Shown here in pieces: positions 1-31,874 of a DNA stretch of 45,455 nt. Position 1 is the first letter of the stretch, and every line of letters starts with the position of its first letter. The DNA comes from a virus. Taxonomy: Duplodnaviria > Caudoviricetes. Both the position numbers and the translations under genes were made by a program. The stretch is taken from positions 1-45,455 of IMG/VR virus record IMGVR_UViG_3300020181_000321; one strand, written 5' to 3'. Below the pieces are notes generated by a model. That model ran no database searches and had not been told where the DNA came from. It worked only from the letters and a program-made list of their open reading frames with translations.

Positions 1-1182
1 TCAACTTGCCGCCGCGAAGACCTGGTCCATGATCTTCTTGGGCGTGTCCTTCAGGTCCGGCCACTCGTGCACGTAGGTCTGGAACGTCGTCTTCAGCGTC
101 GCGTGCCCCAAAGCCTTCCGTACCGTCTCCACCGACGCGCCGTTGTGGATCAGGCTCGTCGCGTAGAAGTGCCTGAGGTCGTGAAGCCGGAACCCCTTCG
201 GCAGACCCGCCGCTACCACCGCGTCTCGCCACATGTCCGACCAGTCCGCCGGATAGACCGGCCGGCCACTGGGCATCGTGACCACAAGCTCCACGGGCCG
301 CGTGCGGACCTCTCTGGGGTTGGTCTCGTCCTTCATCTCCCACGCGGAAGGCGGCGCGACGCGCAGCTGCTCGGCGATGGCCTCGGCCACGATGGTCGGC
401 AGGTCGACCGTGCGGGACACCCTGGTTTTCGTGGGTCCGAGGTAGAGCCCACGTCCCGTGACGTACTTGAGCTGCTGGGCAACGTCGATCTCGCGGTTGA
501 GGAACGCCACGCCGTTCTTCTCCAGGCCCATGATCTCGCTGGGCCGGAGCCCGGCGCCCGCCGCGATCCACGGCACGGCCCGAAACCGCGGCAGCAGGGC
601 ACGGGCCAGTGCGTGCACCTTGTCGACGGTGGGGATGTGATAGGACCGCGGCGGGATGGAGGGCAGCTTGATCGCCACGCACGGCGAGGACCCGATCCTG
701 CGGTCCAGCACCGCGGCCTTGAACAGCGGCCCGACCACGGTGTTGAACAGGACGGTCAGCGACACCGGGGCGAGGCTCTTCGACCGGTCCGCGACCCATC
801 CGCGGATGTGGGAGTTGAAGACGTTCCCCAGCTGCTCGTGCCCGAGGAGCGGGTACACGTGCAACCGCAGCCCGCGCTCCATGTGGGCGTAGGTGGTGGG
901 ATCGACGTCGACCCGCGTCTTCAGCCACTGCTCGCCGTACTGGCGCACGGTCATCTGCCCCGCCCTGGGGTCGACGTAGCGCCCCTGGGAGATGTCGGCC
1001 TTGATGTTGTTCTCGAACTGCTCCGCCTCCACCTTGGTGTCGAATGCGGGGTGCCGCTCCTCACCGGTGCGCGGGTCGGTGTAGTTGACCCGCCAGCGCC
1101 GGCCACGGCCGTACCGCTTGGACTTGATCCGCTCGTCGTTGGGCCCGCGCTTCTTGAGGTACCAGAGGTCCTGGGGCGCCAT
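1..1182 (-). CDS. int: Tyrosine integrase
   Basis: Catalytic set GLRPSEI (R), HDLRH, LGHA, TYVH; N-terminal arm-binding region (WRVNYTDP..F.TK.EA). ATG 1182 preferred over the ORF-track start at 1311. Confidence 0.96.
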   Translation of the reverse strand: MAPQDLWYLKKRGPNDERIKSKRYGRGRRWRVNYTDPRTGEERHPAFDTKVEAEQFENNIKADISQGRYVDPRAGQMTVRQYGEQWLKTRVDVDPTTYAHMERGLRLHVYPLLGHEQLGNVFNSHIRGWVADRSKSLAPVSLTVLFNTVVGPLFKAAVLDRRIGSSPCVAIKLPSIPPRSYHIPTVDKVHALARALLPRFRAVPWIAAGAGLRPSEIMGLEKNGVAFLNREIDVAQQLKYVTGRGLYLGPTKTRVSRTVDLPTIVAEAIAEQLRVAPPSAWEMKDETNPREVRTRPVELVVTMPSGRPVYPADWSDMWRDAVVAAGLPKGFRLHDLRHFYATSLIHNGASVETVRKALGHATLKTTFQTYVHEWPDLKDTPKKIMDQVFAAAS

Positions 1183-1331
1183 CACGCCCACCTGGCGGCG
1201 CGTGCGTGAAGCGCTCGGCGGTCCGTCTGCGCCTGGTGCTCGTCGACCTTCGGGGCCGGGGGACGGTGGGCCGGTCGGCGCGTGGTGCGTCGACAGGCGC
1301 GGGTGGTGCACCAGCGATCTCTAATGGACAT
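1182..1331 (-). CDS. Small 49-aa ORF coupled to int
   Basis: MSIRDRWCTTRACRR...ARWA; its TGA overlaps the int ATG (TGATG). Confidence 0.4.
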   Translation of the reverse strand: MSIRDRWCTTRACRRTTRRPAHRPPAPKVDEHQAQTDRRALHARAARWA

Positions 1332-4046: not shown

Positions 4047-4350
4047 CGAGATCCTGGAGATCCAGCCGGAGGAGTCCGGCGACGTGCTGCCCTACCCGTG
4101 GTTCATCACGAAGGACGGCATGGTCGGCCGCCAGGACTTCTGGCGCGGCAAGCCGGCACAGCTCGTCGGGTTCGTGTTCGAGCCCGACACGACCGGTGAC
4201 GTCGACCTGAGCTTCGACCAGTTCTGGGCCGACGGCACCGACGCCGTGGGCATGTTCCCGGTGTTCGCGCACGCCGACGGCTCGTTCAACACCTACGGCC
4301 ACCGCCGCATCGCGGCGGTGCGCGCCGAGGGTGGTGACGGCCGTGGGTGA
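4039..4350 (+). CDS. Hypothetical protein
   Basis: Good codon usage; coupled to neighbours. Confidence 0.7.
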   Translation: MADEILEIQPEESGDVLPYPWFITKDGMVGRQDFWRGKPAQLVGFVFEPDTTGDVDLSFDQFWADGTDAVGMFPVFAHADGSFNTYGHRRIAAVRAEGGDGRG

Positions 4351-5533
4351 CCAGTCCCGTATCGAGTGGACGGACGCGACGCTCAACATCGTCACCGGGT
4401 GCACGCGGGTGTCCGAGGGCTGCCGGCGCTGCTACATCGAGCGCACGCCGCCGTTCTACCAGGCCGGCCGGAAGTTCGACGGCGACGGCATCGGCGCGAC
4501 CACCGGCGTCCTGCTGCACCCCGAGCGCCTGGCGCAGCCGCTGCGCTGGACCCGGCCGCGCCGGGTGTTCGTCAACTCGCTGGCCGACCTGTTCCACGCG
4601 ACCGTGCCGAACGAGCTGATCGCGCGGCTGTGGGTTGTCATGGCCCTGACGCCGCGCCACACCTACCAGGTGCTGACCAAGCGGCCCGCGCGGATGCGGG
4701 GGCTGCTCACCGGTCCACGCTGGACCGGCCTGGTGCGCCGGGCGGTGTCATGGGTGGTGGACCACATCGAGGCCCCGATGCCCCTGCCGGACATCGCGCG
4801 GGTCGACGCGTGGCTGGCGACCCCGGAGCGCGCAGACGACGTGCTGCCCCCGCTGCCGAACGTGTGGGTGGGCGTGTCCACCGAGGACCAGAAGACCGCG
4901 GACCAGCGCATCCCGGACCTGCTGGACACCCCGGCCGCCGTGCGCTGGATCAGCGCCGAACCGCTGCTGGGGCCGATCGACCTCCGCGCGGTCCGAGGTC
5001 TGGACGGCCAGTACGGCTGCCGGGGCGCTCACCTGGGGCGGGGTACCGCGGAGTGCCCGACCGGGCGTCACCACCACCACGACGACCGCTGCCGGTTCCC
5101 GCTTGACTGGGTTGTGGTCGGGGGCGAGTCCGGTCCGGGCGCGCGGCCGATGCACCCGCAGTGGGCCCGCGACATCCGGGACGCCTGCGCCCGCGCGGGT
5201 GTGCCGTTGCTCTTCAAGCAGTGGGGCGATTGGGGACCCGCGCCGTGGGCGGTGCGGGTGTGCGACCCGGCCGTCGGCTGGCGCGGCACCGACGACGAGC
5301 TGGCCGCCGCGAAGCGGGACGCGGAGGCGCGCGGCGCCACCCACGCCTACGCGGTGTGGGCCCACGAGCACGGCTGGGAGACCTACAGGCCCAACCACAA
5401 GCCGTGGTCGCTGGAGCGCGCCGACTCCGTGGACGAGCGCTACCACGCGCCGATCCGCCGCTGGGGCAAGAAGCGCGCGGGCCGGGAGCTGGACGGCGTG
5501 CTGCACGACGAGTACCCGGCGGTGACCCGGTGA
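4343..5533 (+). CDS. DUF5131 / phage Gp37-Gp68 family (radical-SAM-like)
   Basis: IEWTDATLN..GCTRVSEGCRRCY, FVNSLADLFH, LTKRP, SAEPLL, WVVVGGESGPGARP, FKQWG motifs. Confidence 0.93.
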   Translation: MGDQSRIEWTDATLNIVTGCTRVSEGCRRCYIERTPPFYQAGRKFDGDGIGATTGVLLHPERLAQPLRWTRPRRVFVNSLADLFHATVPNELIARLWVVMALTPRHTYQVLTKRPARMRGLLTGPRWTGLVRRAVSWVVDHIEAPMPLPDIARVDAWLATPERADDVLPPLPNVWVGVSTEDQKTADQRIPDLLDTPAAVRWISAEPLLGPIDLRAVRGLDGQYGCRGAHLGRGTAECPTGRHHHHDDRCRFPLDWVVVGGESGPGARPMHPQWARDIRDACARAGVPLLFKQWGDWGPAPWAVRVCDPAVGWRGTDDELAAAKRDAEARGATHAYAVWAHEHGWETYRPNHKPWSLERADSVDERYHAPIRRWGKKRAGRELDGVLHDEYPAVTR

Positions 5534-21865: not shown

Positions 21866-21886
21866 ACCCCCACCAAGGAGGTGACC

Positions 21887-23833
21887 ATGGCGCAGCGCTC
21901 GGTCCGTATCGCGATCGACAACAAGATCACCGGGGCCTGGGCCAAGGGCTCGATGCTGTGGGCGATGCCGCACCACCTCCGCGACGCCACCACCAAGGTG
22001 CTGCACGGCGCGGGCACGCTGCCGGTCGTGCTCGACGGACAGCCCGTCGTGGCCCAGATCCCCGTCACCGACGACCCCGCCGAGTTCCCCACCGACTGGG
22101 CCTGGACCGTCACCATCGACACCGACGTCCTGCGCGACACCTACCTCATCCAGGTGCCCAGCGGCGACGACGTGGTGGAGTTCCTGGACCTCACCCCGGT
22201 GGCCGACGGTGGCGGCCTCACCTCCTACGCCACCGTCGCGCAGCTGCTCGCTCACCAGGCCGCCGCCGACCCGCACCCGCAGTACCTGACCGAGGCCGAG
22301 GCCGACACCCGGTACGCGCCGGTGCCGCCCGCCGGTGTCGACCTCGGCGCGTGGCTCACCGGCTGGACCGCGGGCATCAGCTCCGGGCAGTCCTACCGCG
22401 AGCCCACCGGCCCCGAGGGCACCGACGGGGTGCTCGGCGTCGAGCGCCTGGCGCTCGGTGCCGACGCCGTCGCGCTGCTCGCCCCGCTCGGCGCGGTGGT
22501 GTCGTCCGGTGTGGACTCGGCCACCGGCCGCCCCTACGCGCTGGCCGCCTGGCCCACCACCGGCGACCGCACCTGGGGCGCGGTGCTCGTCGACCGCTCC
22601 CGCCCGGTCGGCCTGGTCGTCCAGTGCCCGCACCCGGTCGCCGACCAGCACACCGAGCTGCTGGCGCTGGCGCACTGGCGGGCGACGCCCGGCGCGCTGC
22701 TGGTGATCGCCGGTGCGCACCGCGACGCCACCGGCCAGCTGCAGGGCGGCTACCCGCTCGCCGACCCGGGCAAGCAGCCCGGCAGCCTGTTCCACCAGAT
22801 CAGCGCGGCCTACGCGGCGCGCGGCGTGCCCGCGGTGCAGTGGCATGGCTACGCCGACGCCACCGCGCCCGGCCTGGACTACGTGGTCGCCACCGGCAGC
22901 GGCAACCCGGGCCCGTCGGCGCGCCGGATCGCCGAGGAGCTGACCGACGCCGGGTTCGTCGCCGGCCGGGGCTGGGATTCCTCCGGCAGCGGGACCGGCA
23001 TCACCGGCCTGACCAACGTCCAGGGCGACGACGCGCACGCGCGCGGTGTGCCGTGGACCCACATCGAGGTCAGCGCGACCGTCCGGGCTCACCCCGACGC
23101 CCGCGAGCGCACCGTCGCCGCGGTCGTCGCGGCCCAGCCCGAGCTGCCCGGCGTCGGGCTCATGCTCGCCGTGCCGACGAGCGGGCAGTTCCCACGCCCC
23201 GTCGGCACCGCGAACACCGCGGGAACCTCCCCGTTCGCGGCGCGCGCCGACCACATCCACGCCGAGCGGCCCGCGACCCTGGCCCGCATCGACGTCCTGG
23301 AGCAGCGCGCTGCACCGCCGAACACGCTGGCCGGAGTCTCCCTCGACGCGTTGCAGGCCACCAGCAACACCGGCAGCGGCGTGACGTTCAGCGCGGGCAC
23401 GCTGCACCTGGTGCGCGTGCCCGTCCCCGTGGCCGCCACGGTGTCCACCGTGTACCTCGGCGTCGTCACCGCGGGCAGCGGGCTCGCCGTGGGCGCGTGC
23501 TGGGCCGGGCTCTACAGCGCGGCCGGCGTCCGGCTCGCCCAGACCGCCGACCAGGCCGCCGCGTGGTCGACGTCCGGCCTGAAGGCCATGCCGCTGACCG
23601 CGCCTGCCGACCTGGCCGCCGGGGTCTACTACGTCGGCGTGCTGGTCGGCGGGACCACGCTGCCGCAGCTGGCGCGCTCGGCCATCGCGGTGGCCGGGAC
23701 GCTCACCGCGGGCGTGCCCACCGGCGCCCACCGGCAGATGACCGGCCCGGCCGGACAGACCACGCTGCCCGCCAACGTCACCATGAGCGCCGCCTCCGCG
23801 GCCTCCTGGGTGCTCTGGACCGCCGTGGCCTGA
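21887..23833 (+). CDS. Fibre/decoration-type virion protein with internal Zn-hydrolase-like domain
   Basis: AAGGAGGT RBS; fibre-type N-domain (TDDP..P..W.W.V), H...DPHPQY and ARADHIH fibre motifs; PH..D/QWHG/HIEVS..R central domain; C-terminal beta domain. Confidence 0.65.
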   Translation: MAQRSVRIAIDNKITGAWAKGSMLWAMPHHLRDATTKVLHGAGTLPVVLDGQPVVAQIPVTDDPAEFPTDWAWTVTIDTDVLRDTYLIQVPSGDDVVEFLDLTPVADGGGLTSYATVAQLLAHQAAADPHPQYLTEAEADTRYAPVPPAGVDLGAWLTGWTAGISSGQSYREPTGPEGTDGVLGVERLALGADAVALLAPLGAVVSSGVDSATGRPYALAAWPTTGDRTWGAVLVDRSRPVGLVVQCPHPVADQHTELLALAHWRATPGALLVIAGAHRDATGQLQGGYPLADPGKQPGSLFHQISAAYAARGVPAVQWHGYADATAPGLDYVVATGSGNPGPSARRIAEELTDAGFVAGRGWDSSGSGTGITGLTNVQGDDAHARGVPWTHIEVSATVRAHPDARERTVAAVVAAQPELPGVGLMLAVPTSGQFPRPVGTANTAGTSPFAARADHIHAERPATLARIDVLEQRAAPPNTLAGVSLDALQATSNTGSGVTFSAGTLHLVRVPVPVAATVSTVYLGVVTAGSGLAVGACWAGLYSAAGVRLAQTADQAAAWSTSGLKAMPLTAPADLAAGVYYVGVLVGGTTLPQLARSAIAVAGTLTAGVPTGAHRQMTGPAGQTTLPANVTMSAASAASWVLWTAVA

Positions 23834-24395: not shown

Positions 24396-25663
24396 TCATC
24401 CTCCGCGACCACATCGACCTGCGGAAACTCCCGCTGAGCTACCGGCAGATCGACTACGTGGTGAACTCGAACGAGTTCGTCAACCTGTCCGAGGGGTCGG
24501 TGCGGTCCGGCAAGACCGCGTCCGGCCTGTTCCGGTGGCTCAAGTTCGTCAACAGCGCGCCCCGCAAGGGCGACTTGGTGGTGTGCGCCAAGACGTTCGA
24601 CACCGCCACGCGCAACATCTTCAACCCGCTCAGGGAACACCCCCTGTTCGGCTCGAAGATCGCCAAGAGCGTGTCCTACACGCGCGGCGCGCCCACCGCC
24701 CGAATCCTCGGTCGCGAGGTCGAGGTCATCACGTTCAACGACGAACGCGCCGAGGGGCGGCTGCGCGGCCTGACCGCCGCCGGCGCGTACGTCGACGAGT
24801 GGTCGCTGATGCCGCGCAGCTTCAACGACCAGCTGCTGTCGCGCTGCTCGACCGACGGGGCCCAGATTTTCGGCAACACCAACCCGGACAACCCGCGGCA
24901 CTGGCTCAAAGCGGACTACATCGACCAGACCGGGCCCGGTGGCCGGCTGAGCGACTGGAAGGTCTGGAAGTTCCTGCTCGACGACAACCCGAGCCTCAGC
25001 GAGCGGGTCAAGGAGCGCTACCGCAGGCAGTTCATCGGCCTCTGGTACAAGCGCATGATCCTCGGCCAGTGGGTGGTGGCCGAGGGCGCGGTCTACGAGG
25101 CGTGGGACCCCGAGCGGCACGTCGTCAAGACCCTGCCGCAGATCGTCCGCTGGATCGCGCTGGGTGTGGACTACGGCACGACCAACCCGTTCGCCGCGCT
25201 CGTGCTGGGCCTGGGCGTGGATGGCCAGCTGTACCTCACGAACGAGTGGCGCTGGGACAGTAAGAAGCGGCAGCGCGCGCTCACCGACGCCGAGTACAGC
25301 GCCCGCCTGCGCAGCTGGCTCGGAGACCTCGGCATCCAGCCCGAGTGGACGATCGTCGACCCCTCGGCCGCGTCGTTCGTGCAGCAGCTGCACCGCGACG
25401 GCATCACCCCGCGCGCGGGCGACAACGCGGTGATCGACGGCATCCGCCTCATCGCCTCGCTGCTCCAGGCCGGACTGCTGCTCGTGCACGAGTCCTGCGA
25501 GGGCTGGATCGCCGAGGCCCCCGGCTACAGCTGGGACCCGAAAGCCGCGCTGAAGGGGATCGACGCGCCGGTGAAGCTCGACGACCACTCGCTGGACGCC
25601 GGGCGGTACGGCATCAAGACCACCCAGGCCATCTGGCAGGGACAACTACTGGAGGCAGCGTGA
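24392..25663 (+). CDS. terL: Terminase large subunit (PBSX-type)
   Basis: Walker A GSVRSGKT, Walker B YVDE, TNPDNP, nuclease motifs GVDYG, DPS, DHSLDA. Confidence 0.96.
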   Translation: MIILRDHIDLRKLPLSYRQIDYVVNSNEFVNLSEGSVRSGKTASGLFRWLKFVNSAPRKGDLVVCAKTFDTATRNIFNPLREHPLFGSKIAKSVSYTRGAPTARILGREVEVITFNDERAEGRLRGLTAAGAYVDEWSLMPRSFNDQLLSRCSTDGAQIFGNTNPDNPRHWLKADYIDQTGPGGRLSDWKVWKFLLDDNPSLSERVKERYRRQFIGLWYKRMILGQWVVAEGAVYEAWDPERHVVKTLPQIVRWIALGVDYGTTNPFAALVLGLGVDGQLYLTNEWRWDSKKRQRALTDAEYSARLRSWLGDLGIQPEWTIVDPSAASFVQQLHRDGITPRAGDNAVIDGIRLIASLLQAGLLLVHESCEGWIAEAPGYSWDPKAALKGIDAPVKLDDHSLDAGRYGIKTTQAIWQGQLLEAA

Positions 25664-26396: not shown

Positions 26397-28007
26397 GTGC
26401 CGCTGCCCGACGGCGGGAAGACCCCGTGGCCCCCGAAGGCGCTGGACGACGTGTTCGCGCGGATCGACTCGTGGGACGCCTGGTACACCGGCGAGCCGGA
26501 CCACCTGGCCGAGGTCTACGGCGGCCTCGGCGGTGGCCGGGGGTTCGACACCACCTCCCGTGCGCGAGTGCGCAACCGGCCCAGCCAGTACCGCGGTGGC
26601 GTGCTGGGCAGGGTGTCCAGGTGGTTCTGGGGCGCGCCGACCGACGCCGGTGAGGTGCCCTCGCGGCTGCACATGCCGCTGGCCGGTGACATCGCCCAGA
26701 AGTCCACCCGCCTGCTATTCGCCGAACCGCCCCGGCTGAAGATCGCCCACGCGGCCACGCAGAAGCGCCTGGACAAGCAGTTCGAGTCCCTGCACGCGAG
26801 CCTGCTGGAGGCCGGCGAGACCTGCGCCGGGCTGGGCGGCGTCTACCTGCGGGTGGTCTGGGACGACACCATCGCTCCGGCTCCGTGGCTGCACGCGGCG
26901 CACGCCGACCAGGCCGTGCCCGAGTGGACGTGGGGCCGGCTCAAGGCGGTGACGTTCTGGCGCATCCTGCTCCAGGACAACCAGCGCGTCGTGCGGCACC
27001 TGGAGCGGCACGAGCCGGGCGTGATCCTGCACGGCGTCTACGAGGGCACCCCGGACACCCTCGGCAAGAAGGGCTCGCTGGAGGCGTACCCCGACACCGA
27101 GGACCTGGCCGAGCGGGTCGAGACCGGCACGACGCGCCTGACCGTGGTGTACGTGCCGAACATGAGGCCCAACCGGGTGTGGCGCAACATCCCGGCCGCC
27201 GAGCCGCTGGGCCGCGCCGACATCTCCGGCGCGGAGACCCCGCTGGACCAGCTGGACGAGACCTGGACCTCCCTCATGCGCGACCTGCGCCTGGGCAAGG
27301 GCCGGGTCTTCGTCCCCGACGTCTACCTCGGCTCGAACGGCCCCGGGCAGGGCGCGACGTGGAACCCCGAGCGGGAGGTCTACGCGACGCTGAACATGCT
27401 GCCGGGCGCAGGCGACGGCAGCATGATCACCGCGTCGCAGTTCGACATCCGCGTCGACGAGCACCTGGGGATAGCCCGCCAGCTCACGATCGAGATCCTG
27501 CGCAGCGCCGGCTACAGCCTGCAGTCGTTCGGCCTGGACGGCGAGGTCGAGGCGACCGCGACCGAGGTCACCGCCCGCGAGCGCGACTCCGGGCTGACCC
27601 GCGGGCACAAGATCCTGTACTGGAAGCCGGCGCTGGCAGAGGCCGTGCTGACGCTGCAGGAGGTGGACCGGGCGCAGTTCGGCGCGGACATCGTGCCGCA
27701 GGAGGTCGAGGTCGACTGGCCCGACGGCGTGGCCGAGGACGAGGAGAAGACCGCGCGCACGCTGCAGATGCTCCACGCGGCCGAGGCGATCTCGATCCGG
27801 ACCCGCGTCGAGCGCCTGAATCCCGACTGGCCCAAGGAGCGGGTCGACCGGGAGGTCCTGGAGATCCGCCGGGACCTAGGCATGGTCGACGCGGACCCGG
27901 CCGAGGACCTGGGCGCCGTTGCGGCCACCGGCGCCATGCCCCGCACCGCCACCGGCGACGAGCCGGATGACGAACAGGACGACGCGGAGGACGAGCCCAC
28001 AGCCTGA
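26397..28007 (+). CDS. Portal protein (SPP1/A118-like)
   Basis: 536 aa after terL; LDETWTS..RD.RLG, IRVDEH, TATEV, acidic tail. Confidence 0.92.
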   Translation: MPLPDGGKTPWPPKALDDVFARIDSWDAWYTGEPDHLAEVYGGLGGGRGFDTTSRARVRNRPSQYRGGVLGRVSRWFWGAPTDAGEVPSRLHMPLAGDIAQKSTRLLFAEPPRLKIAHAATQKRLDKQFESLHASLLEAGETCAGLGGVYLRVVWDDTIAPAPWLHAAHADQAVPEWTWGRLKAVTFWRILLQDNQRVVRHLERHEPGVILHGVYEGTPDTLGKKGSLEAYPDTEDLAERVETGTTRLTVVYVPNMRPNRVWRNIPAAEPLGRADISGAETPLDQLDETWTSLMRDLRLGKGRVFVPDVYLGSNGPGQGATWNPEREVYATLNMLPGAGDGSMITASQFDIRVDEHLGIARQLTIEILRSAGYSLQSFGLDGEVEATATEVTARERDSGLTRGHKILYWKPALAEAVLTLQEVDRAQFGADIVPQEVEVDWPDGVAEDEEKTARTLQMLHAAEAISIRTRVERLNPDWPKERVDREVLEIRRDLGMVDADPAEDLGAVAATGAMPRTATGDEPDDEQDDAEDEPTA

Positions 28008-28029
28008 TCGCGCCGGGAGGTGATCCCCG

Positions 28030-30738
28030 GTGGCGGTCGATCCCGACCGGTTGGACGAGATCGCCGGCGCGGTCGCCGCGGTCTACCGCGAGGCCGAGAC
28101 CGCGCTCGCCGCGCTCATCGCCCAGCACCTGGCCGGTGACCTGGACAGCGACATGCAGGCTCCCGCCTGGGCGCAGAAGAAGCTGGCTGCGGTCGCGGCG
28201 CTGCGCCGCTCGGCGCAGGCGGTGATCGCCGGGCTCCAGGCCGCCGGGCCGGGCGCGGTCCGGGACGCGGCAGCCGCCGCGTTCCGCGAGGGCTGGTCCT
28301 CCGCGCTGGCCGAGCTGCCCAAGTCCTGGTTCCCGGCCTCCGGGCTCGGCCAGGACGCGCAGGCTGCCATCGAGCAGCTGCCCGGGTTCGCCGCGGTGGA
28401 GGCCCTGGCGAACGCGGTCTACGCCGACATCGGCGAGAAGAGCAGGAACATCCTGCGCGACGTCCTGGACGCCTACCGGAAGGTCATCACCGCAGCCACC
28501 GCGCGCACCGTCACCGGCGTCCAGACCCGGCGCCAGGCGGCCCAGGCCGCGTGGCAGGCGCTGCGGGACCGGGGCGTCACCGGGTTCACCGACCGGGCCG
28601 GGCGCCGCTGGAAGCTCTCGTCGTACGTGGAGATGGCCGTGCGCACGGTCACCCAGCGCGCCGCGGTGCAGGGGCAGACCGACCGGCTCGCCACGCTCGG
28701 CGTGCAGCTGGTGATGGTGTCCAACGCGCCGCAGGAGTGCGTGCTGTGCCGGCCGTACGAGGGCCAGGTGCTGCGCCTGGACGCGGGCCCGACCGGCGCG
28801 ATCAGCGTGCCGCACGAGCTGACCGACGCCCCGATGACGGTGGAGATCGTCGCCACCCTGGCCGAGGCCCAGCTGCGCGGGCTGTTCCACCCGAACTGCC
28901 GGCACAGCGTGTCGGCGTACCTGCCCGGGGTGTCGAAGCCGGCGCCGCAGCCGACCGCGGACCCTGACGGCGACCGGGCCCGGCAGCAGCAGCGGGCGCT
29001 GGAACGCGAGATCCGGCGCCACAAGACCGCCGAGGCCGCCGCGCTGGGCGAGGAGGACCGCAAGGCCGCCCGCCGCAAGGTCGCGGGCGCGCAGGCGCGG
29101 ATGCGCGAGCACCTGAAGGCCAACCCGACGCTGAAGCGCCTGCCGTACCGGGAGGCCATCGGCGCGGGCAACATCCCCCCGAAGGGCAAGGGCGGCCCCG
29201 CGGGCGCCATCGGCCCGGACCTGCCGCCCACGCTGGACGGCGGGCCCGGCAGCGCGCCGAAGCCCACCGGGCGCGCGCCGGACGAGCAGGCCGTCACGGT
29301 CAACGACGAGCACCAGGCCGACCTGCTCGCCGACGTCGCGCCGGGCCCGGAGCCCGTCGACCCGCTCGGCGGCATGGTCCTCAAGCCCAAGCCGCGCGGT
29401 GTCCAGGACGGCGACTTCGCCGGCCTGCGCCGGGTCGGCCCGCAGGGCGGCTCGAACCCGGGCGGGCTGTACGAGGACGCCGACGGCGTGCGCTGGTACG
29501 TCAAGGCGCAGCGCTCCGAGGAGCACGCGCGCAACGAGACCGCGGCCTCCGCGCTGTACCGGGAGGCCGGGGTCGACGTCCCCGAGGTCCACCTCGGGCG
29601 CGGCACGCCGGACCTGTCCGGCGACTGGCACACCGCCTCCCGAGTGCTCGACGGCGACCAGGTGTCCGACCCGGACGCCGTGCGCGAGCAGCTCCGCGAG
29701 GGCTACGGCGTGGACGCCTGGCTGGCGAACTGGGACATCGTCGGCGCCACGTTCGACAACGTCATCCGGACCCCGGACGGCAAGGTCGCCCGGATCGACC
29801 TCGGCGGGTCGATCCTGTTCCGCGCCCAGGGCGGCCCGAAGGGCGCGCGGTTCGGCGAGACGGTGGACGAGTGGCTGTCCCTGCGCGACCGCCACAGGGC
29901 GCCCCAGGCCAGCCGCGTGTTCACCGGGATGAGCCCCGTCGAGCAGCTGGCCGCCGTGCAGCGGGTCACCCGGATCAAGGTCGGCAGGATCCGGGAGATC
30001 GTCGCGGCGGCCGGGCTGCCCAAGTCGGTCGCTGACCTGCTCGTCGCACGCCGGCGGGACCTGGCCAAGCGCCTGCCCGCGCTGCGCGAGCAGGCCAAGC
30101 GGCAGCGGGCGTGGGAGAAGGCGCACAAGTCCGCGGTGAAGGGCCGCGCCGGGTTGGCCACTCCCCCGCTCCAGCTCACCTACACCGACCGGCGGCTGCT
30201 GCCCCGCCCCGCGGGCTGGAGTTCCAGCCGGCTGTTCCAGGTGACTGCGGCGGTGGCGGACTACCGGGGCTCGGGCTACCGCCAGATCAACGGCTACCTG
30301 CGGCACGGCGCCGGTGACCGCAGCGACACCGTCGCCCGCATCGACGAGGCGATGGAGCTGTCGACGCTGCCGAAGGCGGTGGGGGTCCACCGGGGCATCC
30401 TCGACCCGGCCAAGGTCTTCGGCGCCGCGTGGAACGACGTGGACGTGACCGGCCTGGAGTGGGTCGAGAAGGGCTACTCGTCCACCACGGTCGACGTTCG
30501 GGTCGCAAGGGAGTTCAGCTCCGGTGGTGGGGGGCGCGTGATGATGCGCGTCGTGCTGCCGAAGGGCACCCGGGCGATCCGGCTGTCCGACATGGCCGGC
30601 CCGGGGCAGCCGCTCGGCGGTATCAGCACCGAGGCCGAGGTACTCGGCAGCCGGCAGCTGCGGTACCGCGTGGTGGCCGACCATGGATTCGACGAGCAAG
30701 GCACGAGGCACGTGGATGTGGAGGTGATCCAGTCATGA
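28030..30738 (+). CDS. Minor capsid (MuF-like) protein fused to a HipA/CtkA-like kinase and a VIP2-type ADP-ribosyltransferase
   Basis: N: D.AGR.W...YVEMAVRT, C..C.P.EG, GLFHPNCRH, QRALER.IR. Kinase: GGSNPGG..YVK..NE, LANWD....DN, RIDLGGS. ART: Y..INGYLR, VHRG, GYSSTT, EAEVL. Confidence 0.88.
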   Translation: MAVDPDRLDEIAGAVAAVYREAETALAALIAQHLAGDLDSDMQAPAWAQKKLAAVAALRRSAQAVIAGLQAAGPGAVRDAAAAAFREGWSSALAELPKSWFPASGLGQDAQAAIEQLPGFAAVEALANAVYADIGEKSRNILRDVLDAYRKVITAATARTVTGVQTRRQAAQAAWQALRDRGVTGFTDRAGRRWKLSSYVEMAVRTVTQRAAVQGQTDRLATLGVQLVMVSNAPQECVLCRPYEGQVLRLDAGPTGAISVPHELTDAPMTVEIVATLAEAQLRGLFHPNCRHSVSAYLPGVSKPAPQPTADPDGDRARQQQRALEREIRRHKTAEAAALGEEDRKAARRKVAGAQARMREHLKANPTLKRLPYREAIGAGNIPPKGKGGPAGAIGPDLPPTLDGGPGSAPKPTGRAPDEQAVTVNDEHQADLLADVAPGPEPVDPLGGMVLKPKPRGVQDGDFAGLRRVGPQGGSNPGGLYEDADGVRWYVKAQRSEEHARNETAASALYREAGVDVPEVHLGRGTPDLSGDWHTASRVLDGDQVSDPDAVREQLREGYGVDAWLANWDIVGATFDNVIRTPDGKVARIDLGGSILFRAQGGPKGARFGETVDEWLSLRDRHRAPQASRVFTGMSPVEQLAAVQRVTRIKVGRIREIVAAAGLPKSVADLLVARRRDLAKRLPALREQAKRQRAWEKAHKSAVKGRAGLATPPLQLTYTDRRLLPRPAGWSSSRLFQVTAAVADYRGSGYRQINGYLRHGAGDRSDTVARIDEAMELSTLPKAVGVHRGILDPAKVFGAAWNDVDVTGLEWVEKGYSSTTVDVRVAREFSSGGGGRVMMRVVLPKGTRAIRLSDMAGPGQPLGGISTEAEVLGSRQLRYRVVADHGFDEQGTRHVDVEVIQS

Positions 30739-30854
30739 CCGACCCCGACGAGCCGACGTCCATCACCGACCGGTGGGACGACACCGAAGTCGAGGTGGTA
30801 GCCCCGCCCGAACAGCCCCCGCGGGGCGAGCCGCTCGAACCGCCGTCCCGCTGA
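30735..30854 (+). CDS. Tiny acidic ORF (39 aa), candidate immunity protein
   Basis: MTDPDEPTSITDRWDDTEVEVV..; GGAGG-like RBS; ATGA overlap with the toxin gene. Confidence 0.55.
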   Translation: MTDPDEPTSITDRWDDTEVEVVAPPEQPPRGEPLEPPSR

Positions 30855-30860
30855 CCGAAC

Positions 30861-30897
30861 CGACCAAGGCCCCGTCACCCCGACGGGGCCTTGGTCG
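30861..30897 (+). terminator. 16-bp stem hairpin closing the toxin unit
   Basis: CGACCAAGGCCCCGTC-ACCCC-GACGGGGCCTTGGTCG. Confidence 0.7.
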
Positions 30898-31052
30898 TGG
30901 GCGGCGCCGAGCCAGGCGCCCGGTGCCGTCCCGTCTCGTGCCGCCGTCGCGCGGCACCCCCACGACTTTCCCGCGTGCGACCGCACGGCCGCGCGGGGCA
31001 GATCCGCGATCCCCTCGGCCGGCTGACCCGGCCCCATGCCCTGGAGGGCTCC

Positions 31053-31874
31053 ATGCAGCACGCGCTCAGGCCGGTTGACCCGGCCGGCGACAGCACGACC
31101 ATCCTGCCCGTCCACCCGGTCACCGGGCTCCGCGCGCTCGGCCTCACGCGCCGCGGTCCGGTGTGGCCCGTCCTCGGCGGCAGCGGCGAGGACGACGGCA
31201 GCACCGGCGAGGACGGCAGCGCCGGAGACGACTCCGGCTCGAACGACAGCGGCGGCCAGGACGGCGACGGCGGGGCGGACTCCGGCCGACGCGGTGACGG
31301 CGGCCGGGACGACAGCACGAAGCCGGACAGCAAGGCCGCCCCGAAGGAGATCAAGGACCTCCCGACCTGGGCGCAGAAGATCATCCGCGACGCGCGTAAG
31401 CAGGCCGGCGACGAACGCAACAAGGTCACCGCAGTCGAGAAGTCCATGCAGGACAAGCTCGACGGCATCGCGGTCGCCCTCGGCCTGAAGAAGGGCGAGG
31501 AGGTCGACCCGAAGAAGCTGGCCGACCAGCTCACCGCCGAACGCGACAAGGCCGCGCAGGACGCGCAGGACGCGCGCACCGAACTGGCCGTGGTCCGGGC
31601 GGCGGACGACCACAAGGCGGACCCCGGGGCGCTGCTGGACAGCCGGGAGTTCATGCGCGAGGTCCGCGAGCTGGACGCCACCGGCAAGGACTTCGCTAAG
31701 GACCTCGCCGAGCTGATCAAGGCGCGGGTCAAGGACAACCCGAAGCGCTACGGCCGCGACGCGCCCGCCCCCAGCAAGTCCGGCAGCGACGGCATGACCG
31801 GCGGCCGGGGCAAGCCCCCGCGGTCCGGCTCGCTCTACGAGGCCATCACCGCAACCACCAACCAGCAGAGCTAA
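31053..31874 (+). CDS. Capsid scaffolding protein
   Basis: D/G-rich N-terminus, LP.WAQK.I...R, coiled coil, LLDSR.F; precedes MCP. Confidence 0.85.
   Translation: MQHALRPVDPAGDSTTILPVHPVTGLRALGLTRRGPVWPVLGGSGEDDGSTGEDGSAGDDSGSNDSGGQDGDGGADSGRRGDGGRDDSTKPDSKAAPKEIKDLPTWAQKIIRDARKQAGDERNKVTAVEKSMQDKLDGIAVALGLKKGEEVDPKKLADQLTAERDKAAQDAQDARTELAVVRAADDHKADPGALLDSREFMREVRELDATGKDFAKDLAELIKARVKDNPKRYGRDAPAPSKSGSDGMTGGRGKPPRSGSLYEAITATTNQQS

Follow-up and report, generated by a model that had tools for sequence, protein, structure and literature searches.

The question raised by this locus is what a minor capsid protein of 902 residues does with the two enzyme-like domains that follow its head domain. 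The window analysed here, a stretch of 45,455 nucleotides, comes from an IMG/VR provirus that is 91% complete. We consider it reasonably probable (about 0.6) that the gene encodes a MuF2-type head protein with a rigid cassette made up of a CtkA-like kinase fold and an R-S-ExE ADP-ribosyltransferase (ART), and that this protein is likely to be packaged and injected with the DNA so that host proteins are modified as soon as infection begins.

Layout of the locus

The gene order in the element is integrase, terminase, portal, the 902-residue gene and tail genes. The integrase lies at 1–1311 on the minus strand, the terminase and portal genes are upstream of the 902-residue gene and the portal gene stops at 28007, directly 5' of it. 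PADLOC gave no match to the 902-residue protein or to the 39-residue ORF that follows it. The original prediction placed after the portal a minor-capsid domain over about the first 380 residues, a Pro/Gly linker, a HipA/CtkA/PI3K-like kinase with intact motifs and a VIP2/C2-type ART with the full R-S-E triad, followed by a coupled acidic ORF of 39 residues and a strong hairpin; every part is found at its place (Table 1).

Table 1. Features of the head-protein gene and its downstream region, in window coordinates.
Feature	Position	Strand	Basis and remarks
Shine–Dalgarno-like GGGAGG	28015..28020	+	9 nt before the GTG start of the 902-aa gene; read in sequence
902-aa gene (head domain, linker, kinase-like domain, ART)	28030..30738	+	GTG start; GC3 0.97
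MuF2-type minor capsid domain, aa 4–363	28039..29118	+	PF06152 Phage_min_cap2; phrog_12049, phrog_581
Pro/Gly-rich linker, about aa 385–460	29182..29409	+	Sequence reading; low pLDDT at aa 441–460 (AF2)
CtkA/HipA/PI4K-like kinase-fold domain (predicted), aa 461–709	29410..30156	+	AF2 model, VIA fold match, invariant residues
VIP2/Alt-type ADP-ribosyltransferase, aa 732–901	30223..30732	+	PF03496; Vip2 alignment; R788, S818, E868, E870
GGAGG inside conserved ...DVEV codons	30720..30724	+	10 nt before the ATG of the 39-aa ORF
39-aa acidic ORF	30735..30854	+	ATGA overlap with the 902-aa gene stop; predicted partner of kinase-ART
16-bp G+C-rich hairpin, no T-run	30861..30897	+	−44.4 kcal/mol, z −6.2, 0/200 shuffles as good

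The capsid domain is borne out by Pfam and PHROG matches alike. PF06152, which is treated as MuF2 in passages of Jamet 2017 (PMC5576092), matches residues 4–363 with an E value of 2.9e-63 and 214.5 bits against a cut-off of 26.3, and the head families phrog_12049 and phrog_581 match with E values of 7e-99 and 9e-90, respectively. The linker can be read directly in the sequence. Similarity to the relatives L081–L083 (69% identity) stops at residue 433, within the linker, which is likely to be a recombination junction. The hairpin at the other end of the locus is likely to be a terminator or an RNA-stability element; a simple terminator scan of 27800–31300 listed none, having missed this hairpin because no T-run follows the stem. 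At locus L001 a hairpin-forming inverted repeat is also found 3' of the small ORF, by reading of the sequence and not by folding.

C-terminal variation among related head proteins

A survey of homologues for swappable C-termini had been proposed with the original prediction, and it shows such exchange: among relatives with 51–69% identity in the capsid domain, some end in an ART alone, others in a PI3/PI4-kinase-like or an unknown domain, and others lack an extension altogether. The C-termini fall into five kinds, matched by as many kinds of downstream ORF. The short capsid form of 405 residues (L089) has no coupled ORF. When the ART is of type B, whether with the kinase (L002 and L097) or without it (L081 and L093), an ORF of 106–120 residues follows. 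The motif (L/V/I)G(H/N/W)(V/I)WTD...AG(F/W) is common to these ORFs, found by eye with no alignment or score, and on this basis we read them as probably one family. The downstream partner ORF thus appears to follow the type of ART rather than the kinase, although the co-variation of C-terminus and ORF could partly reflect shared descent.

A small ORF of the DRW type follows the kinase-ART pair behind four N-terminal scaffolds, namely PF06152 (the window, L001 and L090), PF04233 (L095), NUDIX (L096 and L100) and a second ART (L099). These gene arrangements show the cassette and its small ORF moving together between head-protein scaffolds.

Polymorphic toxin–immunity pairs are typically recognized by exchangeable C-termini, each with its cognate coupled ORF, and the locus might be read as a MuF polymorphic toxin that mainly kills or arrests neighbours without the prophage, with the small ORF as the immunity gene that protects lysogens. 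The integrase in the present element would agree with this, as MuF toxins are described only from temperate phages in the portion of Jamet 2017 (PMC5576092) that bears on the point. We nevertheless hold this reading to be unlikely. The small ORF is part of the late structural operon, where the toxin gene is coupled to it and the hairpin comes after it, and nothing suggests expression in the lysogen; the same kinase domain is found in 86–122 kb genomes of cultured phages, which may or may not be temperate; and a takeover precedent for ART-type phage cargo is given by T4 Alt in the relevant passage of PMC5512222.

The two enzyme-like domains and their pairing

All of the expected kinase motifs are present in the middle domain: GGSNPGG (residues 473–479), YVK (K492), NE (E503), NWD..DN (D569 and N577) and RIDLG (D590). 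The K, E, D, N and D residues (K52, E63, D129, N137 and D150 in the numbering of the cassette model) are invariant across 39 aligned kinase-ART homologues. Structure prediction, which had been suggested as a check of this domain, recovered a kinase fold: the AF2 model has a pLDDT of 93.5 and a pTM of 0.88 and includes a full helical C-lobe. In this model, numbered as above, the residues fall in the elements expected of a kinase: the G-loop lies between strands 27–30 and 38–42, K52 is in strand 48–53, E63 is in helix 57–72 and D150 comes after strand 146–148. According to VIA, the domain model is most similar to Helicobacter pylori CtkA (Z 16.4, r.m.s.d. 3.2 Å over 214 aligned residues), with further matches to CotH (Z 13.6), HipA (12.1), PI4KIIα (12.0) and actin-fragmin kinase (10.7). 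LepB (Z 9.8) and aminoglycoside, macrolide and sugar kinases are also among the neighbours. Foldseek returned 231 PDB matches at E ≤ 1e-3, of which the best 50 are all kinases. The predicted structure allows us to assign the middle domain to the CtkA/HipA/PI4K-like kinase fold.

At the sequence level the domain is without a Pfam or NCBIfam model and its nearest Atlas clusters are unnamed. The Pfam search gave only HipA_C (PF07804), with an E value of 0.12 and 12.4 bits against a cut-off of 30.5, and no match to the PI3_PI4_kinase profile (PF00454); the NCBIfam search gave nothing, and a domain-only profile of 50 sequences found nothing in the PDB below an E value of 1.4. The only single-sequence PDB match, to succinate dehydrogenase (E 0.3), was set aside as a chance hit. 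The hhalign match of the domain profile to the PI3/PI4-kinase-type C-terminus of L092 (E 0.071, probability 0.8%) was discounted as too weak; the catalytic motifs line up in it. D569, N577 and D590 are tentatively placed at the catalytic and Mg-binding positions by motif order and this one weak profile alignment.

The predicted fold leaves the substrate unspecified; the nearest folds include the lipid kinases PI4KIIα and LepB. These neighbours and the small-molecule kinases listed with them would suit a lipid or small-molecule kinase, or an inactive kinase-like scaffold, in place of a protein kinase; so would the sister capsid fusions L092 and L094, which match Pfam PI3_PI4_kinase, and partner domains that suggest nucleotide and ADP-ribose chemistry. 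We find this quite improbable, however, as the best fold matches (CtkA, CotH, HipA and actin-fragmin kinase) are protein kinases, and the invariance of the K, E, D, N and D residues argues against a dead scaffold.

The assignment of the ART is supported by sequence matches. PF03496 matches residues 740–881 (E 1e-13, 51.5 bits against a cut-off of 23.4), and Vip2 is matched with an E value of 6e-5 by the single sequence and of 3e-16 by a profile. R788, S818-T-T and E868-A-E870 are aligned with the R, STS and ExE of Vip2, and in the 39 kinase-ART homologues S378, E428 and E430 (cassette-model numbering) are invariant and R348 is conserved in at least 90%. An ExE motif is established as a sign of arginine specificity in the R-S-E clade of ARTs, and from this motif we infer that the domain is an arginine-type (R-S-ExE) enzyme.

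The kinase and the ART are predicted to fold as one rigid unit; the AF2 model of the two domains (462 residues) has a pLDDT of 92.8 and a pTM of 0.88. The original prediction considered such a two-enzyme stack to be unusual, and this was wrong. The family of the kinase-like domain comprises 5,976 cluster representatives (50% identity) at E ≤ 1e-3 and 3,687 at E ≤ 1e-30, it is found in 20 cultured-phage records, and the ART stands behind the kinase in most members examined. Among 120 near-length homologues 93 have an ART, C-terminal to the kinase in 91, and 27 are kinase-only versions; of the 141 top representatives that were tested, 95 likewise carry an ART, which follows the kinase in 87 and precedes it in four. 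ART calls without Pfam support were judged from the catalytic columns, and 34 of the 35 calls missed by Pfam keep the E at the second ExE position; single-sequence PDB searches of two such calls (P0089 and P0061) gave nothing useful. Relatives of the kinase-like domain also occur in proteins of 1,000–7,000 residues, in up to five copies. From the literature searches described below, this very common pairing of phage effector enzymes (∼6,000 clusters of the kinase-like domain, usually directly before an ART) appears to be unstudied.

A pairing of this kind might reflect coupled chemistry, in which the kinase and the ART act sequentially on one substrate or the kinase switches the ART on. The fixed order of the domains (91 of 93, and 87 after against four before) points in this direction, as do the linker of only ∼10 residues between the two enzymes in the actinobacterial clade, the pTM of the two-domain model, the recurrence of the kinase-like domain with the NUDIX, WGR and 2H domains of ADP-ribose biology and the single 39-residue peptide that is predicted to lie on both catalytic regions (see below). 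The idea is doubtful all the same: the kinase-only versions and the ART-only capsid fusions L081 and L093 imply that each enzyme can stand alone, and in other clades the kinase and the ART are 140–190 residues apart.

The predicted small partner protein and comparison with known systems

The 39-residue ORF contains 11 Asp/Glu against three Lys/Arg residues and has a GC3 of 0.90. Pfam and PHROGs gave nothing for it except phrog_32763 at an E value of 0.094. The sequence GTGGAGGTG, which contains the GGAGG, is exact in the window, L001, L090, L096 and L100 and is one or two bases off in L099 and L095. The ORF is conserved and, by way of the ATGA overlap, translationally coupled to the 902-residue gene.

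Prediction of the complex between the 39-residue protein and the kinase-ART unit gave an ipSAE of 0.91 in three of three runs, while the best of three controls gave 0.00; the score is a model confidence derived from our own small alignment (seven rows for the peptide), and 116 of 157 solved complexes attain this mark, compared with two of 215 mismatched pairs. The partner has a pLDDT of at least 80 and the runs have at least 91% of contacts in common. The predicted interface includes R348–D352, S378–T380, E428 and E430 on the ART side and W128–D129, R158–Q160 and D173–A187 on the kinase side, with the ATP-site residues absent from the list. The 39-residue protein is thus predicted to bind to the catalytic cleft of the ART and to the catalytic loop and adjoining C-lobe surface of the kinase, and it is likely to be an inhibitor of the unit. 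The earlier idea of a micro-immunity protein has gained support from the model score (0.91 against 0.00), from the conservation of the ORF with the cassette behind four scaffolds and from the other ORFs that accompany other C-termini.

Because the peptide touches the kinase catalytic loop and C-lobe and no ATP-site residue is listed, it could be a substrate of the kinase instead; it has Ser or Thr at positions 2, 8, 9, 11, 17 and 38. Its acidic, Pro-rich composition resembles that of many disordered adaptors, and it might alternatively act in head assembly or as a chaperone for folding or packaging. The chance that it serves in one of these ways and not as an inhibitor seems small to us, as the predicted pose also covers the R, STT and ExE residues of the ART, which fits occlusion, and the small ORF tracks the type of ART and not the capsid scaffold, with no such ORF beside the short capsid protein L089.

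As an inhibitor, the 39-residue protein would silence both enzymes in the cell that produces the virions. In the scheme that we infer, the 902-residue protein would be packaged in the capsid and enter the host together with the DNA, and the kinase-ART cargo would part from the small protein either when it is packaged or when it unfolds during ejection. Once free, the two enzymes would phosphorylate and ADP-ribosylate host proteins in the service of takeover or anti-defence, each activity having its own precedent in T7 kinase and T4 Alt, respectively. A difficulty for this scheme is that a temperate phage injecting a toxin would sit uneasily with lysogeny, unless the resulting modifications were mild or could be reversed. 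Should both enzymes be injected, phosphorylation and ADP-ribosylation would be delivered before any phage gene is expressed, which bears on how phages beat entry-acting defences. The small protein would be a way for the producer cell to survive making this cargo, and it is a small, testable candidate inhibitor of an atypical kinase and an arginine ART. A more far-reaching proposal, which we put forward tentatively and think unlikely to hold in full, is that the kinase and the ART form a composite enzyme, conserved across thousands of phage proteins (head, portal and giant injected ones), and couple their modifications on one host target (for example, phosphorylation priming or completing ADP-ribosylation), and that a micro-protein of ∼40 residues, in which a β-strand comes after a conserved R-W-x-D motif, serves as an antidote to both enzymes at once by threading through the two active sites. 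If true, the composite and its micro-protein would establish a new class of effector, in which two injected enzymes share a peptide plug.

The best structural match of the middle domain, H. pylori CtkA (PDB entries 3akj, 3akk and 3akl), is named in the PDB title only as a 'proinflammatory kinase'. CtkA is a secreted Ser/Thr kinase. It differs from the middle domain in being a stand-alone protein, and at 14% identity there is no sequence-level link between the two. HipA, PI4KIIα, CotH and actin-fragmin kinase are atypical relatives with the same bilobal kinase fold. The catalytic loop of the middle domain reads WDxxGxxxDN rather than D-x-H-x-x-N. A functional precedent for the kinase half of the cassette is T7 gp0.7 (T7K), which acts on many host proteins at the start of infection and disarms defences, as set out in part of PMC13645617; it belongs to another kinase family, lacks an ART and is made in the host after entry instead of being carried in the virion.

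T4 Alt belongs to the same Alt/VIP2 clade of ARTs as the present domain and has the same R-S-E triad. It is packaged in the head and injected, as noted in a passage of PMC5512222, and virion delivery at the start of infection is likely here too; unlike the 902-residue protein, Alt has a loading route of its own and is fused neither to a MuF domain nor to a kinase. The polyvalent proteins, in the sections of Iyer 2017 (PMC5512222) that describe them, resemble the 902-residue protein in having several effector domains in one virion-linked polypeptide. Their kinase is a Ser/Thr/Tyr kinase without a C-lobe and their ARTs are of the H-Y-D type, whereas the present protein has a CtkA-like kinase with a full C-lobe and an R-S-ExE ART.

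Fusion of a CtkA-like kinase and an ART to a head protein was not found described in the polyvalent-protein, MuF-toxin, polymorphic-toxin and viral NAD/ADP-ribose literature or in full-text searches. Head-packaged MuF-ART fusions are already on record (PMC9503650), unlike the kinase-like domain that stands between the two parts here. The main text of Jamet 2017 (PMC5576092) never uses the word 'kinase', and the Ct_MAD domain of that paper, which derives from the C-terminal part of COG2369, is probably not the kinase-like domain.

The MuF toxins are also among the closest systems, including the Enterococcus faecalis V583 EFV toxin (MuF1 plus ART), for which ART activity is given in the passages of Jamet 2017 that treat it (PMC5576092). 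As described there, MuF toxins have an N-terminal MuF-family domain, a C-terminal toxin-type domain and a small coupled downstream ORF in a prophage setting beside portal and terminase genes. The present locus shares with the MuF2 branch an N-terminal MuF domain, a variable toxin-type C-terminus, a co-varying small ORF and a place in a prophage head module. It differs from the MuF toxins in that its cargo consists of two enzymes and its 39-residue partner is predicted to cover both.

Setting and domains of the 902-residue protein

The window is a provirus, 91% complete by CheckV in its IMG/VR record, with a G+C content of 64–77%, and its genes run from the integrase through the large terminase, the portal and the 902-residue gene to the capsid and tail genes. 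The GTG start codon of the 902-residue gene lies 22 nt past the portal stop codon and has GGGAGG 9 nt before it. Among the matches listed, the closest named homologues of the product come from Saccharothrix, Nonomuraea, Acrocarpospora, Streptosporangium and other actinomycetes. The early region of the window also encodes a DUF5131 protein (PF07505, E = 1.4e-87) with PADLOC matches to two candidate-defence models, PDC-M41B (E = 3e-65) and PDC-M30B. A 650-residue ORF with a strong coding signal (GC3 of 0.97), directly 5' of the HTH/terminase genes, gave no match in Pfam or PADLOC.

Pfam matches the N-terminus of the 902-residue protein to a minor capsid family and the C-terminus to an ADP-ribosyltransferase (ART) family, with a Pro/Gly-rich stretch between them; PHROGs gives head morphogenesis and minor head protein families (E = 7e-99 and 9e-90) and an ART toxin family (E = 3e-8). 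A homologue profile of the ART matches Vip2, Certhrax, CdtA, iota and C2-I (E = 3e-16 to 4e-8), and R788 (VHRG), S818 (SSTT) and E868/E870 (EAE) align with the R, STS and ExE of Vip2. The minor capsid domain and the VIP2-type ART with an R-S-E triad, both proposed from the sequence in the original prediction, are thus borne out.

Features of the window, of the 902-residue protein and of capsid-domain relatives on viral contigs (loci numbered L)
Feature	Position	Strand	Basis or remark
Tyrosine integrase	1–1311	-	domain searches
DUF5131 protein	4331–5533	+	
650-aa ORF	21881–23833	+	
Large terminase	about 24398–25660		annotation of window
SPP1-like portal	26397–28007		annotation of window
902-aa gene, GTG start	28030–30738	+	ORF call
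Minor capsid domain	aa 4–363		PF06152 Phage_min_cap2, E = 2.9e-63
Pro/Gly-rich stretch	~aa 385–460		
Gly-rich loop	between first two strands		model
K492	third strand		model
E503	helix next after K492 strand		model
D569, N577	loop past helix aa 559–564		model
D590	directly past short strand		model
ART	aa 740–881		PF03496 ADPrib_exo_Tox, E = 1e-13
ART end codons (...DVEV)	30712–30726		
Small ORF, 39 aa	30735–30854	+	ATGA overlap with stop codon of 902-aa gene
Capsid + ART	L081–L083, L093		coupled ORF 114–120 aa
Capsid + unidentified domain (proteins of 652–822 aa)	L086–L088		coupled ORF 65–66 aa, RMF-like PF04957, E = 1.9e-10 (L086:5463–5660)
Capsid + PI3_PI4_kinase-like, without ART	L092:2989–5034, L094:2977–5106		coupled ORF 76–79 aa, of another kind
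Capsid, 405 aa, no C-terminal extension	L089		no coupled ORF
657-aa form	L084		coupled ORF not found

The middle domain and its pairing with the ART

Between these two regions lies a middle domain (residues 461–709) for which Pfam returned only HipA_C at E = 0.12, NCBIfam no match and the PDB sequences none, either by single sequence or by a domain-only profile of 50 sequences; the nearest Atlas clusters (score 0.89, a lead only) are 'hypothetical proteins' of 220–232 residues. An AlphaFold2 model, using an alignment of 62 of the 119 listed homologues picked for spread, has a pLDDT of 93.5 and a pTM of 0.88. Foldseek found 231 matches to it in the PDB at E ≤ 1e-3; every one of the 50 listed first is a kinase, with actin-fragmin kinase and CtkA at the head. 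On VIA re-alignment H. pylori CtkA is the best match (Z = 16.4, r.m.s.d. 3.2 Å, 214 aligned), followed by CotH (13.6), HipA (12.1), PI4KIIα (12.0) and actin-fragmin kinase (10.7), with the RIO and PI3K kinases below. The original prediction had named kinase motif residues and suggested AlphaFold as a check: the confidently modelled fold is of kinase type with CtkA nearest, the residues are invariant or nearly so in homologue alignments, and the model appears to place them where a kinase would have them. The one alignment to a Pfam PI3_PI4_kinase domain, the C-terminus of L092, is statistically weak (E = 0.071) and pairs YVK, WD..DN and IDxGG with IRK, IDRNQGN and IDHGA.

The family is very large. 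A word-indexed search with the middle domain only, in which 8,000 candidates were scored, gave 209 proteins at E ≤ 1e-3; the fusion partners in the 120 that were listed include PF06152, PF04233 (MuF), PF06381 (portal-like), ART families, NUDIX and WGR. An exhaustive profile search over representatives of 50%-identity clusters gave 5,976 at E ≤ 1e-3, 5,249 at 1e-10 and 3,687 at 1e-30; the median length of the 141 further top-listed representatives is 1,351 residues, and one protein may hold as many as five domain copies. Tandem copies (two to five) are seen in the giant representatives P0122 (3,416 residues) and P0137 (7,004 residues) and in P0026, P0027 and P0034–P0039. The domain is present in 20 cultured-phage records (11 from Gordonia, three from Pseudomonas and one each from Yersinia, Morganella, Escherichia, Enterobacter, Aeromonas and an Actinomycetia phage), annotated as 'hypothetical protein' or 'ADP-ribosyltransferase'; in Gordonia phage Sixama the gene is next after the portal gene, and in Pseudomonas phage Dolphis the product is a 1,222-residue 'ADP-ribosyltransferase'. 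More phage proteins in BFVD show the kinase fold, as do proteins of the haloarchaeal tailed viruses HHTV-1 and HSTV-2 (R4T6E8 and L7TJZ0), so the family extends to archaeal viruses.

Of the 120 listed proteins, counting the query, 58 have an ART by precomputed Pfam matches. An ART profile built on this set in three iterations recovers all 58 and raises the count to 93, in 91 of which the ART is C-terminal to the kinase-like domain. Of the 35 additional calls, 28 keep R, 11 have S or 23 have C, and 32 and 34 have E at the first and second position of ExE; because these catalytic columns are kept, we regard the calls as ART-like rather than as profile drift. An ART is also found in 95 of the 141 further representatives (past the last kinase copy in 87, ahead of the first in four) and in 78 of 153 kinase-bearing ORFs from the fetched loci, where many ORFs are cut by contig ends. 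By these counts the two-enzyme stack, which the original prediction took to be unusual, is a widespread module of fixed order. L099 and P0028 each carry two ARTs in one kinase-bearing protein. The spacing between kinase and ART is 4–17 residues in the actinobacterial clade, and a model of residues 441–902 has a pLDDT of 92.8 and a pTM of 0.88, so it is confident of the mutual position of the domains; kinase and ART are predicted to form one rigid unit.

Exchanged C-termini and the coupled ORFs

A whole-protein scan of viral contigs returned capsid-domain relatives with 51–69% identity, the similarity ending at about residues 400–450, within the linker. Their C-terminus and coupled downstream ORF vary together; these are swappable C-termini of the kind for which the original prediction proposed a homologue survey. 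The C-termini of L092 and L094 match Pfam PI3_PI4_kinase (E = 2.5e-7 and 1.2e-5), so that this capsid scaffold bears another kind of kinase-type cargo as well. The match of the L086–L088 coupled ORF to ribosome modulation factor hints that the cargo of these loci may act on the ribosome.

By identity the ARTs fall into two types (36–52% within the window type, 38–47% within the second, ∼25–33% between). Second-type ARTs are followed by ORFs of 106–120 residues with a kinase (L002, L097) or without one (L081, L093), so the coupled partner follows the ART type and not the kinase. These four ORFs share by eye the motif (L/V/I)G(H/N/W)(V/I)WTD...AG(F/W), and we read them as one family. By eye, three of the four also open with the motif R-[WF]-x-[DE], which was not found in the L093 sequence, and the L002 start, PRWTDAAFAPFDV, seems alignable with that of L095, DRWADAATPEAFDV.

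The window's small ORF encodes an acidic, Pro-rich product, has a GC content by codon position of 0.77/0.54/0.90, and is preceded at 10 nt by GGAGG, inside the ...DVEV codons, and followed by a 16-bp hairpin. The sequence of these ART end codons, GTGGAGGTG, or a near variant is also present in L001, L090, L095, L096, L099 and L100, and these conserved codons serve at the same time as ribosome-binding site for the small ORF. An alignment of seven small ORFs has M1, R13, P25 and P37 invariant and the motif [ST]-[IL]-x-[DE]-R-[WI], after which come a hydrophobic strand and Pro. ORFs of this type stand behind kinase–ART units with an N-terminal PF06152 (window, L001 = L091, L090), PF04233 (L095, with L006 nearly the same), NUDIX (L096 = L003 = L101, and L100) or second ART (L099). 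In L006, a contig of 2,971 bases some of which are undetermined, the homologous gene is broken into two frames (ORFs 1–606 and 573–1445), either by a frameshift or by misassembly; 3' of it the small ORF, of DRW type, is intact.

Complex prediction with residues 441–902 as chain 1 (36 alignment rows) and the 39-residue protein as chain 2 (seven rows) gave an ipSAE of 0.91 in all three runs and 0.00 for the best of three controls; in the calibration, whose counts hold roughly for custom alignments, 116 of 157 solved complexes and two of 215 mismatched pairs reach this mark. To our knowledge no solved complex resembles this one, so a pass by model memory seems unlikely. The partner has a pLDDT of 80–84 and at least 91% of contacts are common to the runs. 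The most confident contacts join peptide residues 19–27 to ART residues 356–373 of chain 1 (796–813 of the protein). In chain 1 numbering, the predicted interface also takes in R348–D352, S378–T380, E428 and E430 of the ART (the catalytic R, STT and ExE) and, on the kinase, W128–D129, G132–T134, R158–Q160 and D173–A187 (the catalytic loop and C-lobe surface). The small protein is thus predicted to bind across both catalytic regions. The interface list includes none of the kinase's G-loop, K52, E63 and D150. Against this domain the peptide resembles a (pseudo)substrate more than a blocker of the ATP site.

Proposed role and comparison with known systems

A sequence of packaging, delivery and modification is likely. 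Late in the lytic cycle the 902-residue protein would be made together with its 39-residue partner and kept inert in the producer cell, and the head domain would bring the cargo into the capsid. At infection the cargo would enter the new cell without the peptide and modify host proteins on Ser/Thr and Arg, for takeover, anti-defence or competitor killing. Established cases give precedents: MuF-family proteins such as SPP1 gp7 are located with the portal in the capsid and exit with the DNA (PMC5576092), T4 Alt enters the host by injection and ADP-ribosylates its proteins (PMC5512222), and phosphorylation by the T7 kinase disarms defences (PMC13645617).

Full-text literature searches (CtkA/phage; HipA-like/phage/ART; MuF/kinase/ART; phage-encoded kinase/ART) did not find the middle domain, although supplements of the MuF/polyvalent papers may list such architectures without naming it. 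As far as these searches reach, a very large unnamed kinase-fold family with a fixed ART pairing and a micro-protein partner is undescribed. The word 'kinase' is absent from the covered text on MuF toxins (Jamet 2017; PMC5576092), and the kinases in the covered parts of PMC5512222, PMC9503650 and PMC3482391 are of other families: C-lobe-less STY, zeta-toxin and lantibiotic-type peptide kinase. The passages covered of these four papers already describe MuF–ART fusions, small immunity ORFs lying downstream, and ARTs that are packaged, and we therefore file the locus with them, as a head protein of the MuF-toxin or polyvalent type.
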